A stretch of 64,000 nt of DNA from an uncultured Candidatus Rokubacteria bacterium (GCA_963805625.1 CAWDVE010000024.1:32001-96000), one strand, 5' to 3'; positions 29,396-46,420 are shown, counted from the stretch's first letter. A program made the numbers and translations. The notes: generated by a model not told the origin, from the letters alone.

Positions 29396-29436
29396 TTGAC
29401 GTGCCTAGTACTACTGTACTATTATACTCATACAGT
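29396..29436 (+). promoter_or_regulatory. sigma70-like promoter overlapped by palindromic operator A (29413-29436)
   Basis: TTGACG at 29396-29401; TATTAT/TATACT at 29420-29428; ACTGTA-N12-TACAGT abuts the ATG at 29437; no RBS, so probably leaderless. Confidence 0.8.
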
Positions 29437-30549
29437 ATGAAGATCCCCCTGCGCCTCCAAGTCGACACCCACAGCCCGATCCCGATCCGCTGGCAGCTGA
29501 CGGAGCAGCTGAAGCACGTGATCGAGGGGGGCGGCGTTCCGCGGGAGCAGTCGTTGCCAAGCATCCGTGAGCTGGCGGGCTTCCTCGGCATCAATCCGAA
29601 CACCGTGGCGCGCGCTATCGAGGATCTCAAGCGGAGCGGGCACGTGGAGGCGCGGCGGGGCAAGGGCGTGTTCGTGGCCCCGGCTCTGGCCGCCCGCCCG
29701 TTTCCGACTCGCCGCGAGGACTTCCTGAGGGACGCGGTGATCCGCGCGGCGGCGCTCGAGATGACCCCCGACGAGGTGGCGGTGGGCATCCTGAGCGTGG
29801 CCGGCGTCGGGTTGGCCGCCCTCCGGGACGCCGTCGCGGTGCTCCTGGTCGAGTGCAGTCCGTCGGAGCTGGATTTCTTCGGGCGGGAGCTTGAGGCCCA
29901 GCTCCCCGTCCGGGTCGACAAGGTGCTCCTCGCCGGGCTGGCGGGAGTTGTGCGGCGCCGGAGGCCAACAGATCGCTGGGCAGCCGCGGTCACCAGCTTC
30001 GGGCATCTCCCGGAGGTGGAGCGCCGGCTGAGCGGCCTGGGGGTCCCGGTGGTCGCGCTCCTCGCCGAGGTGCACCTGGAGACGCTCCATCGTCTGGCCC
30101 AGCTCCCGGCAGGGACGCGAGTGGGCGTGGTCTCCGCGGAGCGCGAGACTGCCCACAACCTGGAACACTCAATCGCCAACGCGGCCCTGCCGAACATCGC
30201 GCGGGTCGAGGCCAGCCCGGCCGAGGGCCCGGCACTGAGTCGGTTGGCGCGGCAGGTGGACGCCATCGTCTGCTCCACCTCGGCCGCCGCGCGGGTGAGA
30301 AGCCTCGTGGGTCCGACGGTGCCGGTGATCGTCGACGATCGGGCCCTCAACCAGCGGGGCATCCAGATGCTCGGGGCCATCCTAGCGCAGCACGACGGCG
30401 ACCGCCCGACCGCGACGCTGCCCCTCACGCGGAAACCGCTCGGTGCTGGTGCAGTCCGGGGCGTCCCCCGCCAGGGGGCAGCCCGAGGGGAAGACGGGAA
30501 CGGGGTAGTCAGGCGGCGGAGCCAAGATCCGATGAAGGGGGAAGAGTGA
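29437..30549 (+). CDS. GntR family (YtrA-like wHTH) regulator with long C-terminal alpha/beta domain
   Basis: PIRWQLTEQL...LPSIRELAGFLGINPNTVARAIEDLKRSGHVEARRGKGVFV. Confidence 0.93.
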   Translation: MKIPLRLQVDTHSPIPIRWQLTEQLKHVIEGGGVPREQSLPSIRELAGFLGINPNTVARAIEDLKRSGHVEARRGKGVFVAPALAARPFPTRREDFLRDAVIRAAALEMTPDEVAVGILSVAGVGLAALRDAVAVLLVECSPSELDFFGRELEAQLPVRVDKVLLAGLAGVVRRRRPTDRWAAAVTSFGHLPEVERRLSGLGVPVVALLAEVHLETLHRLAQLPAGTRVGVVSAERETAHNLEHSIANAALPNIARVEASPAEGPALSRLARQVDAIVCSTSAAARVRSLVGPTVPVIVDDRALNQRGIQMLGAILAQHDGDRPTATLPLTRKPLGAGAVRGVPRQGAARGEDGNGVVRRRSQDPMKGEE

Positions 30550-30800
30550 TGAGTTTCGTCATGTGGGTGCTCGTGGCGGTATTGGCCGGCTTGCTCGCTG
30601 GGTTCGTCATGAAGCGAGGAAGCTACGGCCGGGGGTGGGATATCGCGCTCGGACTCACGGGAAGCATTGTCGTGAGTTGGTTCTTCCAGAGCCAGTGGGC
30701 CGCTCCCGATCCCAGTCTGGTCGCGGTGATCTTCGTCGCGGCCATCGGCGCAGCGGGTTTGATCGTCGCCCAGCGCGCGATCTTTCCGTCGCATGTCTAG
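30549..30800 (+). CDS. GlsB/YeaQ/YmgE family stress membrane protein
   Basis: AGLLAGFVMKRGSYGRGWDIALGLTGSIV, three TM helices; start overlaps the GntR stop (TGATG). Confidence 0.88.
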   Translation: MSFVMWVLVAVLAGLLAGFVMKRGSYGRGWDIALGLTGSIVVSWFFQSQWAAPDPSLVAVIFVAAIGAAGLIVAQRAIFPSHV

Positions 30801-30880
30801 GGCCCGAAACGTGGATGGATCCATCCCGGCGCGTCGCGCCGGAGTCCGACAAACGTCGCGAACATAGGGGGAACCAACAC

Positions 30881-31273
30881 ATGGAAGCGAACAGAGGCAA
30901 GCTGAGCATGGGACAGCGGTGGAGTGAGGCGCGACCGACGAAGACCCTGCTCTTCTGGTCTTGCGTGGCCTCGATGGTGCTGACGATGATCGTCGGCTTC
31001 AGCTGGGGCGGATGGGTTACGGGCGGCACGGCCCGCCAGACGGCGGAGACCACGGCCTCCGACGCGATCGTCCTCCGCCTGGCCCCGATCTGCGTCGTCC
31101 AGTCCGCTCGGGACTTGGGAAAGGGTCCGAAGCTCGTGGCCATGAAGGACGAAAGCAGCTGGCAGCGCGGCGAGTATGTCGGCAAGCAGGGATGGGCGAC
31201 GATGCCGGGTGAGCAGGAGCCCGATCGCCGTGTGGCCGAGGCCTGCGCGACGCTACTGATGCCGACGAGCTAG
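30881..31273 (+). CDS. conserved hypothetical membrane-anchored protein
   Basis: TMIVGFSWGGWVTGGTA...LAPICV...GWATMPG...VAEACA; Cys pair. Confidence 0.8.
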   Translation: MEANRGKLSMGQRWSEARPTKTLLFWSCVASMVLTMIVGFSWGGWVTGGTARQTAETTASDAIVLRLAPICVVQSARDLGKGPKLVAMKDESSWQRGEYVGKQGWATMPGEQEPDRRVAEACATLLMPTS

Positions 31274-31419
31274 GGGTCCGTGAGTGGCGCACCCGGAGAT
31301 GGCTCCCCCCGGGCCATCTCCGCTCTCACGCGCGGGTCTCGTGGGTGGCCCGATGCGTCCGTGGCGGCCAGCGCGCTGGCGACGGAAGGTCCAGATCTTC
31401 ACCCACAGCCGGGAGCACC

Positions 31420-31743
31420 ATGCGAGAGATGACGAGTTTTAGGACGCTTCGCGAACAGAGTCGGATCACATGGATTGAGCGGGACCGCGGCTGGGTCGCG
31501 GCGCCGGAGGACATCGTGACCGTCCTCTCGAGCGAGGGCTTCGCGGAGTGCAAGCGTGAGACGACGACGAGCCGGCGTGATAGCCACCCGGCCGGCGGCG
31601 TCTGGCAAGGCGTGGACCCTCGAACGGGATCCGTCGCGTCCGCGGTCTGGGTGAATCACGCGGCGTGGCCGCACGCGCTCGTGTACATCGAGGTCGACGG
31701 GGAGTCACTGACGGGTGCCGTGGGTACGCGCGTCGAGTCCTGA
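31420..31743 (+). CDS. hypothetical protein
   Basis: GGGAG RBS; protein-like composition; co-oriented with neighbours. Confidence 0.65.
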   Translation: MREMTSFRTLREQSRITWIERDRGWVAAPEDIVTVLSSEGFAECKRETTTSRRDSHPAGGVWQGVDPRTGSVASAVWVNHAAWPHALVYIEVDGESLTGAVGTRVES

Positions 31744-32084
31744 GACCCACTCGGCAAGGGGCCGGGTCCAACCGGACGCGCAACCCAAGGGGCGCGACGC
31801 GCCCAGGAGCCATGCGGCGATGGAAACGCGATCGCGATGCGGAGCGGACAACTGGTCCCGGAGTCTGGCCCGGGGCCGTGGCGGTGAGTCCGCTCTGGCC
31901 ATGAGCGGGAATGTGAGCGCCGAGGCGCCCGCTCATCGACCCGAGCACCAGAGCAGTGAGTCGGACCGTGGTGGCCCCGGACTTGAGCCGGATCCGTATC
32001 GGGATGAGGGCGGAGAGGCGTAGGCGCGCTCGGACAGTTCTCGTCTGAGGGCGCGGCGCCGGGCCCTGGCAGGGGAACAGGCAT

Positions 32085-32357
32085 ATGAAGGTGAGAGATC
32101 TCGCGTGTTGGCCTCCGAGATGGCGCCGGGCTTCCGGCCCGTCCGGCGAGGTCACCAGTGGTGAGCGCGGGGTTCTCATCGCCGCTCACTGGGACTACAA
32201 GACCCAGTCCCTGTCCCTCGTCATGGAGGACGAAGGGGACCGACACGTCGGGGTCCTCGAGGACACGGTGCCGGTGCTGTCCACGCTCGCCCTCATGCTC
32301 GATTGGCACGTCGGCCGACCGCTTGCCAAAATTGGCGGCCTGGAGATGACTGTCTAG
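32085..32357 (+). CDS. hypothetical protein (90 aa)
   Basis: Purine-rich RBS; protein-like ORF starting MKVRDLACWPPRW. Confidence 0.6.
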   Translation: MKVRDLACWPPRWRRASGPSGEVTSGERGVLIAAHWDYKTQSLSLVMEDEGDRHVGVLEDTVPVLSTLALMLDWHVGRPLAKIGGLEMTV

Positions 32358-45353: not shown

Positions 45354-45416
45354 AGATCTGTATCCTTCCTCACCGAATGTAGTCGAGTGGGGTGACCGAG
45401 GCTGGGGCCGCGAGGG

Positions 45417-45749
45417 TCACGCGCTGAGGATGCCGAGAACGTCCTCCTCCTTCATGATCAGATACTCCTTGCCGTTGAGCTTCACCTCGCTGCCGGAGTA
45501 CTTGCCGAACAGGATGCGGTCCCCCGTCTTGACGTCGAGCGGGAGCTTCTTGCCGTCGTCGGTCACCTTGCCGTTGCCGGCCGCGATGACCTTACCCTCC
45601 TGGGGCTTCTCCTTGGCGCTGTCCGGGATGATGATGCTCCCGTGCTTCTCTTCCCCCTCCTCGAGCCGCTTGACGAGCAGGCGGTCATGGAGCGGGCGCA
45701 GTGAGATCTTCGTTACCTGGGTCATTGGAGCTTTCGCTACCTGAGGCAT
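45417..45749 (-). CDS. groS: co-chaperonin GroES
   Basis: [26 protein letters not shown] and KYSGSEVK. Confidence 0.98.
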
Positions 45750-45807
45750 GGTTCGGGTACCCCCCTCTTCGGGTGTGTGTGAGCGCGGCGGGTCGTACAG
45801 CGGTCTT

Positions 45808-45831
45808 AGTGTACCACTAAACTAGTACAGT
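45808..45831. promoter_or_regulatory. operator B overlapping the extended -10 of the groES promoter
   Basis: AGTGTA-CCACTAAACTAG-TACAGT; the minus strand reads TGG-TACACT (TGn-TAxxxT), about 60 bp upstream of groES. Confidence 0.78.
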
Positions 45832-46192
45832 AGTACGATAGATCCCCGGAGCGGTGGGCGCACCCGCCAGCACGAGGCCGACCGGGGCGCGGGACTCCCC
45901 GCCGGAGCCTCACCTGCAAGTCGCTGCCGGAACGGGGGGATGGGGCCGATTCCTCGAGGCTCCGGGGCTCCCGCGAACGCGCTTGGCTTCAGCGACGGGG
46001 TGCGCCGGTGTCCAGGCAGGCGAGGGAGCTGAACTCGACGTGGCGCAGGCCAAGGCGATGCCTTCCAGGCCCACGGACTGCCGGCTAGGGGTAGGCCCTG
46101 ACGGGGCCGGAGCCTATCAGGCCGGCTGGGCAGGTATCGGGGGTCAGCCGGACAGGAGAGGGGCGGCGGGGCTAGATGGCTACTATTGCTCT

Positions 46193-46216
46193 AGTGTACT
46201 ATTATAGTAGTACAGT
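46193..46216. promoter_or_regulatory. operator C upstream of the GntR relic
   Basis: AGTGTA-CTATTATAGTAG-TACAGT followed by AGGAGA and an ATG at 46228. Confidence 0.78.
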
Positions 46217-46227
46217 AGGAGAACCCA

Positions 46228-46420
46228 ATGGACCCGACCCGCCCTGGATGCGCATATTCCCGATCCCGTGTGGCCGAGTCGCGTATGAGTGTCATCGCAG
46301 GTGAGAGCCTCCGACGGGGTCCATCGTTGGCGAGTACCCGGGAGCGTTCCGACTCTTCGGGGGTGACTTCAAGTGCGGTGACGCGCGCCATCGAGGATCT
46401 CAAGGGAAGCGGATATCGGC
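46228..46420 (+). pseudogene. degenerate GntR wHTH relic
   Basis: SLASTRERSDSSGVTSSAVTRAIEDLKGSGY aligns with SLPSIRELAGFLGINPNTVARAIEDLKRSGH of 29437; DNA cgcgcgc(c/t)atcgaggatctcaag is shared. Confidence 0.75.

Follow-up and report, generated by a model that had tools for sequence, protein, structure and literature searches.

A 24-bp palindrome as the predicted operator of a long YtrA-type GntR regulator at its own gene, a groES-groEL paralogue and other stress genes of an uncultured Candidatus Rokubacteria bacterium

In a 64,000-nucleotide stretch of DNA from an uncultured Candidatus Rokubacteria bacterium (GCA_963805625.1 CAWDVE010000024.1:32001-96000; hereafter the window), a 24-bp palindrome recurs at the start of a gene for a 370-aa GntR regulator (gntR), before a groES-groEL paralogue and before an internally deleted copy of gntR. 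We consider it fairly likely that this palindrome is the operator of the GntR protein, which would repress gntR, the groES-groEL paralogue and other stress promoters until its predicted sensor domain releases it. The motif, its position, its conservation, its exclusion of the CIRCE element (controlling inverted repeat of chaperone expression) and its co-occurrence with a clade of the regulator were observed directly.

Three copies of the palindrome are confirmed as real, and the sequence reads at each of them exactly as originally described. Operator A (29413-29436) ends at the base adjoining the gntR ATG, operator B (45808-45831, minus strand) lies 58 nt before the first groES ATG, and operator C (46193-46216, plus strand), a copy of the gntR promoter operator, is divergent from B; their matrix scores are 42.7, 32.0 and 42.4, and 18, 16 and 20 of their 24 positions are self-complementary, respectively. 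The stretch said to be common to A and the reverse complement of B is present as a 14-mer at 29408-29421. The reported overlap with a -10-like hexamer also holds, as TAnnnT occupies site positions 8-13 in A, B and C and is directed toward groES in B. The strict pattern A[CG]TGTA-N12-TACA[CG]T matches 13 times across the assembly containing the window (7.27 Mb, ~69% G+C), and the core [CG]TGTA-N-TACA[CG] does so 13 times at a spacing of 12 vs 0-5 times at every other spacing from 8 to 17. The original prediction had called for a matrix scan of this and related genomes; to avoid circularity, the training set of our matrix was confined to 27 sites from the gntR starts of relatives, one being present at 27 of 28 loci. 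In the genome of the window the matrix gave 21 hits above 20 at 17 distinct places, with A, B and C scoring high, compared to 0-2 hits for each of 10 column-shuffled matrices. Four of the 21 hits are companions shifted by 8 bp, reflecting extra half-sites. Several operator clusters of the genome (L003, L007, L010 and L011) adjoin ISAzo13/ISL3 transposases and integrase fragments, which may explain duplication. The pattern searches also surfaced a second conserved palindrome, GTACCAACC.GTTGGTAC, at G004:C32:61410, G050:C3:111395, G151:C1:173395 and G157:C13:204484; it is probably the operator of another regulator.

Judged by its sequence, the 24-bp palindrome is the known YhcF/YtrA-type operator. 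The YtrA/YhcF group (B. subtilis YhcF, Listeria lin1836) has the same 24-bp operator, AGTGTAC-TA...TA-(G/A)TACA(C/G)T, in the description of Suvorova et al. 2015 (PMC4494728). The YhcF sites predicted in that work are, among those listed to us, also 24-mers built in this way, and at least one fits the strict pattern. A 24-bp operator is described as typical for YtrA (PMC6746942). This likeness to a consensus that is the predicted target of short YtrA-family proteins raises the alternative that a different DNA-binding protein, either a short YhcF/YtrA or another factor, reads the palindrome. We regard this as very improbable. The family profile finds no short YtrA/YhcF protein in this genome, and the other GntR genes found there lack such a site, except for a deleted copy and a distant paralogue with a variant palindrome. 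The genome holds three full gntR paralogues with an operator abutting the start of each, and operators stand at the gntR start in 56 of 62 homologous loci (69 loci were drawn from named genomes, of which 67 had a scorable gene and 62 had enough upstream DNA), so that the putative autoregulatory operator of the original prediction is upheld. Of 61 genomes of the order, 39 have a homologue of the regulator: the close clade (identity of at least 57%) in 30 of them and only a clade of 34-38% identity in 9. In a sister clade of 37% identity, inspection by eye found a related site at the regulator's own promoter, often TGTCC...GGACA, in 16 of 19 regions; of the other three, one was cut by a contig end and two had no site. 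The distant paralogue (329 aa, G000:C17:565670-566659) has the same architecture and carries a perfect-armed TGTGC...GCACA upstream. The motif and the protein thus appear to vary together across clades, and the regulator very probably binds these sites.

Some loci of the regulator deserve mention in their own right. Close homologues of 62-66% identity occur on records titled Solirubrobacteraceae, Gemmatimonadales and Patescibacteria (L233, L222 and L228), perhaps by mis-binning or transfer, and L233 has a gntR/groES divergon. The distant clade usually lies upstream of a conserved gene of 420-447 aa (L236, L239, L240, L243-L247, L250 and L253) and is often preceded by a conserved open reading frame (ORF) of 65-77 aa under the same operator. 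On Methylomirabilis/NC10 records (L230, L232 and L224), the regulator is flanked by CsbD, DUF3309-like genes and an ORF that resembles a cold-shock protein by eye, and in L232 also by a glucan synthase. Two queries for plasmid carriage returned no match.

Control of groESL by HrcA through CIRCE is established. The window groES paralogue (45417-45749, minus strand; 110 aa, or 102 aa from 45725) is followed by an intact groEL paralogue (43731-45353, minus strand; 540 aa), and the claim that no CIRCE precedes this groES was correct within 330 bp at up to 3 mismatches. The genome's CIRCE matches precede two other groES copies, and hrcA is present. We listed 110 groES copies, excluded 4 cut by contig ends, and compared 330 bp upstream of the remaining 106 from 55 genomes. 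The operator was found at 26 (scores of 28.9-41.4, in 18 genomes), CIRCE at 64 (45 exact, 19 with 1-3 mismatches), neither at 16 and both at none; the best score among copies without the operator was 4.9. All 38 copies beside rpsF have CIRCE, and the rpsF locus is likely the housekeeping one. In the 29 genomes with the close clade of the regulator, 26 of 62 groES copies carry the operator vs 0 of 44 in the 26 genomes without it. In a GroEL tree built from 84 rows, each with 430 residues or more, and with a root made unreliable by two long-branch groups, the 22 operator copies cluster (5 changes vs 19.6 when shuffled). Like HrcA and CIRCE, the system would pair a palindrome near the groES promoter with a dimeric repressor bearing a C-terminal sensor domain, as predicted here; the operator and protein family are, however, unrelated, and the two systems coexist in the genome. 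Elsewhere in the genome the housekeeping groESL stays under HrcA and CIRCE, so the regulator would add to HrcA without replacing it.

Direct divergence of gntR and groES is frequent in the sister family, with two operators spaced by 40 bp, of which the groES-proximal one abuts the gntR -35. This arrangement allows for B to be an auxiliary operator of a divergent gntR promoter, left from an ancestral divergon, with a regulon that amounts to autoregulation plus copied promoters. Site C and at least two other genome sites do head deleted gntR copies, and several sites lie near transposase and integrase genes. Such an origin can account for C, and the duplication-only alternative for the two sites stands to that extent; for B we think it quite improbable. 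A groES gene lies no more than 6 kb from gntR in 39 of 67 loci, and in 16 of 62 the two are directly divergent; of the 26 operator-bearing copies, 11 have no gntR 5' sequence within 900 bp. The site nonetheless stays 24-190 bp from groES in those 11 copies or where, as here, gntR sequence is 385 bp away. Across families the groES-proximal site is 79% identical vs 32-33% for its flanks (144 pairs), a difference that is partly by construction as the sites were picked by score. The operator-bearing groES copies all lack CIRCE, and sites without any gntR remnant are found at hsp20 and receiver operons. Conservation before orthologous groES genes had been set beforehand as one point on which the prediction could fail, and B passes this test: the operator is conserved there in two families, separately from gntR.

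Other features of these chaperonin genes were also noted. Short N-terminal tandem repeats, with several ATGs in frame, are common in operator-type groES genes, including that of the window (45726-45749) and those of relatives. An hsp20/DUF3309 cluster led by an operator ends in a 5' fragment of groEL (L004:6859-7041; G000:C10 about 2123000), and there is a frameshift close to the 3' end of the L007 groEL.

The GntR relic reported at C is an internally deleted gntR copy with a 120-codon ORF (46228-46590, plus strand). The DNA following C aligns with the first 200 nt of gntR, and past a junction at 46416/46417 it matches the 3' tail of intact genes (approximately nt 971-1021) in a shifted frame; this tail match was obtained with 11 of 58 intact genes at E <0.01, the best at 7e-8. 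C is, from its sequence, a duplicated gntR promoter rather than an independent target, and B and C together would be the remains of an ancestral groES/gntR divergon. We found 32 truncated gntR copies behind operators, 23 of which share the same junction; those sharing it include L007:17108, L003:7729, L264, L268, L275, L276, L080 and L292. In 20 of the 23, a frame is open from a start within ~50 nt of the operator to RAIEDL(K/Q)RSGYRPL, despite compensating upstream frameshifts, while the other two frames are open to that point in 8 and 0 copies. The conserved peptide reads RAIEDL(K)xSGYRPL in the window. Only synonymous changes occur in the GYRPL codons, and the copies have an identity of 0.85-0.87 to the window gntR in the last 42 nt vs 0.58-0.75 before. 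Selection on a leader or arrest peptide is possible, although the deleted copies were found via their conserved end, so that ascertainment bias and shared descent are real alternatives. An RNA element at the junction is not supported, as 0 of 18 predicted pairs had a two-sided change in 9 sequences. Beyond the C cassette on the same strand (47723-51093) are genes for an alpha/beta hydrolase, a DedA/VTT-rhodanese protein, a pirin and a 159-aa ORF that is Dps-like by eye, with no operator directly before them.

The genes behind the other sites fit the stress-type regulon originally proposed, as chaperone, protease and stress genes recur behind predicted operators. In the genome of the window, three groESL copies have sites before them, and one of these copies is followed by SPFH genes of the hflK/hflC type. 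Sites also precede three hsp20-containing operons, an SPFH gene, DUF3309 and GlsB-like genes, a fragment of a peroxiredoxin gene and genes for unnamed membrane proteins, and a desaturase is encoded a few genes behind one gntR paralogue. In relatives, sites are followed by genes for, among others, FtsH and Hsp20, SPFH and receiver proteins, an RRM protein, RpsU, CsbD, a desaturase and superoxide dismutase. No ABC transporter was found among the identified protein clusters behind 202 sites. Likely further targets, as suggested by gene order, are hsp20, ftsH, hflK/hflC, GlsB-like membrane proteins and a receiver pair behind a fourth site, D. This weak operator (43414-43437, minus strand; score 16.2, no better than two unrelated genome hits at 15.9 and 15.5) has 8 self-complementary positions of 24, and a TTGACG hexamer 11 nt upstream (43449-43454) extends the element to 43414-43454. 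Behind it are genes for an atypical receiver (42676-43074) and a CheY-like receiver (42266-42679), together spanning 42266-43074 on the minus strand. In another genus (G019:C34) the orthologous receiver pair stands behind an operator scoring 40.8, and in the sister family (G052:C134) it comes after groEL, which favours the receiver pair as a regulon member, as had been claimed. D may accordingly be described as a weak member, the spacing of its -35 and the orthology of its genes agreeing with the family where its symmetry and score do not.

Directly after gntR, a small GlsB/transglycosylase-associated-like membrane protein is encoded at 30549-30800 (plus strand); its cluster hits PF04226 weakly and is near gntR in 46 of 67 loci. 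Three small unnamed ORFs follow on the same strand (30974-31273, 31420-31743 and 32085-32357), homologues of which recur behind operators (clusters 4, 6 and 9). Next is a cyclic beta-1,2-glucan synthase-like gene with GH94, glucoamylase-like and GT2 domains (32711-41521, plus strand). In 15 of 67 loci a glucan synthase gene lies no further than 6 kb from gntR, and in 9 of 54 it is downstream on the same strand. The sequence does not support direct control of this gene, as there is no operator immediately ahead of it and 32303-32332 holds a promoter-like match of its own.

The position of the sites relative to promoter elements bears on the sign of control. The gntR promoter is of the sigma70 type, TTGACG-18-TATTAT (29396-29425, plus strand; 10 of 12 consensus matches), with its -10 within operator A; its geometry is equal in relatives, and the gntR transcript would be leaderless or nearly so. 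A TTGAC-like hexamer is present upstream of 139 of 202 distinct sites, in 104 of these at 10-11 nt; the -10 then falls on site positions 8-13 and the start within the site, the geometry of a repressor. The TTGACG -35 is present for A (at 29396) and for D, and no canonical -35 was found at B and C. The tested YtrA proteins in the studies available are repressors (PMC6746942; PMC12772383). From this geometry we consider it likely that the regulator represses groES. None of the RNA data could be used as evidence of expression: all 24 runs listed held less than one third of the sampled words, and four runs examined gave contigs dominated by the groEL of other organisms and no start site or expression level.

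Several observations weigh against repression by this regulator as a full account. Among the 29 regulator-carrying genomes, 11 assemblies show no groES with the operator, and in two of these groES lies 2-2.8 kb downstream of gntR on the same strand. Most sister-family genomes have 0-2 matches to the strict pattern, so the core regulon would be gntR and groESL, with the large version belonging to the family of the window. The genomes are related and the named loci overlap the genomes of the order, so that counts are not independent events, and the estimated contamination of the window's assembly (6.3%) could inflate copy numbers. A single clean operator clade of groEL had to be abandoned, as a CIRCE trio and seven copies with neither element fall among the operator copies and one operator copy falls outside. 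The fold matches of the C-terminal domain, among them two-lobed binding proteins and receiver or phosphotransferase system (PTS) IIB domains at Z 8-9.5 and the PrpR N-domain, name no ligand. At 48 groES-proximal sites, TAnnnT on the groES strand is well kept at T8 (46) and A9 (47) and less so at T13 (31), and a TTGAC-like -35 is found on that strand in only 2. The groES promoter is therefore undefined by sequence and the sign of control there ambiguous.

The chief weakness is this mostly missing -35, on account of which activation at groES is kept as a rival. The same protein and sites would then repress the regulator's own promoter and activate groES-groEL, as the MocR-type GabR is said to do at its divergent target; the GabR PDB entry is titled autorepressor and activator. 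A bound regulator would offset the poor groES -35, which sets these sites apart from the operators overall. In the sister family, the second operator 40 bp off is directly upstream of the expected groES -35, and the HTH (helix-turn-helix) of the regulator also scores well against MocR models. Set against this, the only TAnnnT facing groES lies in the groES-proximal site, with none on the opposite strand, so that bound protein should block it, and many groES copies have no upstream partner site at 40 bp. We judge activation to be unlikely and retain repression as the preferred reading.

The regulator gene (29437-30549, plus strand) encodes a protein with a winged HTH at approximately residues 7-83, helices at 92-122, an alpha/beta region at 131-323 and a tail. 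The N-terminal GntR winged HTH that marks the family is present, with a PF00392 match of 46.5 bits (cut-off 27) and a structural match to the YvoA HTH (Z 15.1, root-mean-square deviation (rmsd) 0.8, 78 aligned). The AlphaFold2 model has a mean predicted local distance difference test (pLDDT) score of 71; it comprises the HTH, helices at 92-106 and 111-122 with low pLDDT, the alpha/beta region and a disordered tail of low confidence. The family profile aligns to the solved YtrA/YhcF proteins 4ham, 6sbs and 3neu across positions 4-123, so the N-terminal third is a complete YtrA unit, with HTH and two dimerisation helices. YtrA proteins are defined by a reduced C-terminal domain of ~50 aa (PMC4494728), which the 370-aa regulator exceeds by a folded domain past the helices; it is not a plain YtrA, having ~190 extra residues in a predicted two-lobed domain. 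The assignment to YtrA-type GntR in the original prediction therefore holds for the DNA-binding unit and the long operator with distant half-sites, and needs amending for the remainder of the protein.

No Pfam match was found in the regulator beyond the HTH, and a sequence search found no solved relative of the C-terminal domain. Modelled alone, this region has a pLDDT of 72. The AraR subfamily is marked by a C-terminal LacI/GalR-type (periplasmic-binding-protein) domain; type I binding proteins align to the regulator over 177-189 residues (Z 8.1-8.6, rmsd 4.5-5.4) with no sequence match, and a LacI regulator matches at Z 6.9. We derive no phosphorylation or ligand role from these folds, the alpha/beta matches being only middling. 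A profile search recovered 432 relatives at E of at most 0.001 from a 50% library, and among 47 aligned full-length relatives E139, C140 and H190 do not vary. The predicted strand ends would place these three residues on the cleft side of the first lobe, where they may act as a metal or thiol sensor.

In comparison with known systems, YtrA/YhcF and the Sulfolobus YtrA (PMC6746942) share with this regulator the aligned YtrA unit, autoregulation (putative here) and extra half-sites beside the core, as far as those systems are described there. The regulator differs from YtrA in its 17 sites in one genome rather than a single ABC-transporter operon, and in its predicted chaperone, protease and stress targets. 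A divergent arrangement is common here and, by the account in PMC4494728, very rare in YtrA. MocR models match the regulator only up to residue 87 and far below cut-offs, leaving no PLP-dependent aminotransferase-like domain of the MocR kind. The cyanobacterial PlmA has a YtrA/MocR-like HTH, a long C-terminal domain and a similar length (PMC5083789). A neighbour cluster of the regulator in the ESM Atlas is mostly Melainabacteria, and its C-terminal domain may resemble that of PlmA more closely. PlmA differs in its partners, PII-PipX, and in being cyanobacteria-only by definition, assigned by an overlap of at least 200 aa with 38% identity to S. elongatus PlmA according to the same source. Close homologues of the regulator occur instead on records titled Candidatus Rokubacteria, Rokuibacteriota or Methylomirabilota. 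Within the Atlas, the regulator falls among GntR + PF27163 ('YmtS Rossmann-like', Pfam 38.1) proteins of several phyla, which share its architecture at 315-360 aa and form clusters in Methylomirabilota, Bacillota, Actinomycetota, Bacteroidota and Acidobacteriota. The C-terminal domain by itself gave a feature hit of 0.91, and the cluster to which the protein likely belongs one of 0.98, with PF27163 in 41% of the members of that cluster; precomputed PF27163 annotation is present on some close homologues, and named homologues come from Brevibacillus, Moorella and Desulfarculaceae.

Paralogous chaperonin genes under their own regulator have been described at groEL2 of Myxococcus, where the response regulator MXAN_4468 works with HrcA (PMC9040617), and at groEL2 of M. 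tuberculosis, where WhiB1, an Fe-S Wbl protein, acts (PMC3430963); as far as those accounts go, neither is GntR-type and neither sits in a gntR/groES divergon. Our literature search found no published function, operator or regulon for GntR + PF27163 proteins and no relevant paper on the meaning of the name YmtS. The open full-text literature searched yielded no GntR regulator of groESL and no account of this regulator in Rokubacteria. Words for groES, groEL, chaperone and heat shock are absent from the PMC4494728 supplement, a weak negative as operons are listed there by locus tag. The operator type is thus known and the regulator is an unstudied long YtrA variant; what appears new is the chaperone/stress regulon, together with its exclusion of CIRCE.

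In the mechanism we propose, a dimer formed through the YtrA-type helices would bind both TGTA/TACA half-sites and block RNA polymerase, because the site covers the -10 and start region. Binding would be loosened by a signal that acts on the two-lobed domain at its invariant Glu139-Cys140 and His190; candidates are a metal, thiol oxidation or a small ligand, and our best guess is oxidative or envelope/proteotoxic stress. Release would supply spare GroES/EL, Hsp20, FtsH, HflK/HflC and small membrane stress proteins beside the HrcA/CIRCE housekeeping groESL. The regulon may have grown by copying of the gntR promoter before new genes, often with a deleted gntR leader as at C. A more ambitious version is speculative and, in our estimate, rather doubtful as a whole: the protein would be the founding member of an unrecognised multi-phylum class of GntR stress sensors in which an invariant Glu-Cys/His site senses oxidation or metal and turns on an entire second proteostasis programme (GroESL, Hsp20, FtsH, HflKC) beside HrcA, spreading via a copied promoter cassette whose leader encodes a selected ...RSGYRPL peptide that controls translation behind it.

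Chaperonin operons are regulated by sigma32, HrcA, HspR, CtsR and a few lineage-specific factors, and no GntR protein was found on that list in the literature searched. If the proposed account is true, Rokubacteria-type bacteria, which are known mostly from assembled genomes, split their chaperonins into an HrcA/CIRCE housekeeping copy and inducible spare copies controlled by a GntR protein. The operator, promoter and regulator could be rebuilt in E. coli, by which the stress physiology of a lineage without a laboratory model would become testable. It would also provide a first function, an operator and candidate sensor residues for a widespread and unstudied GntR architecture.

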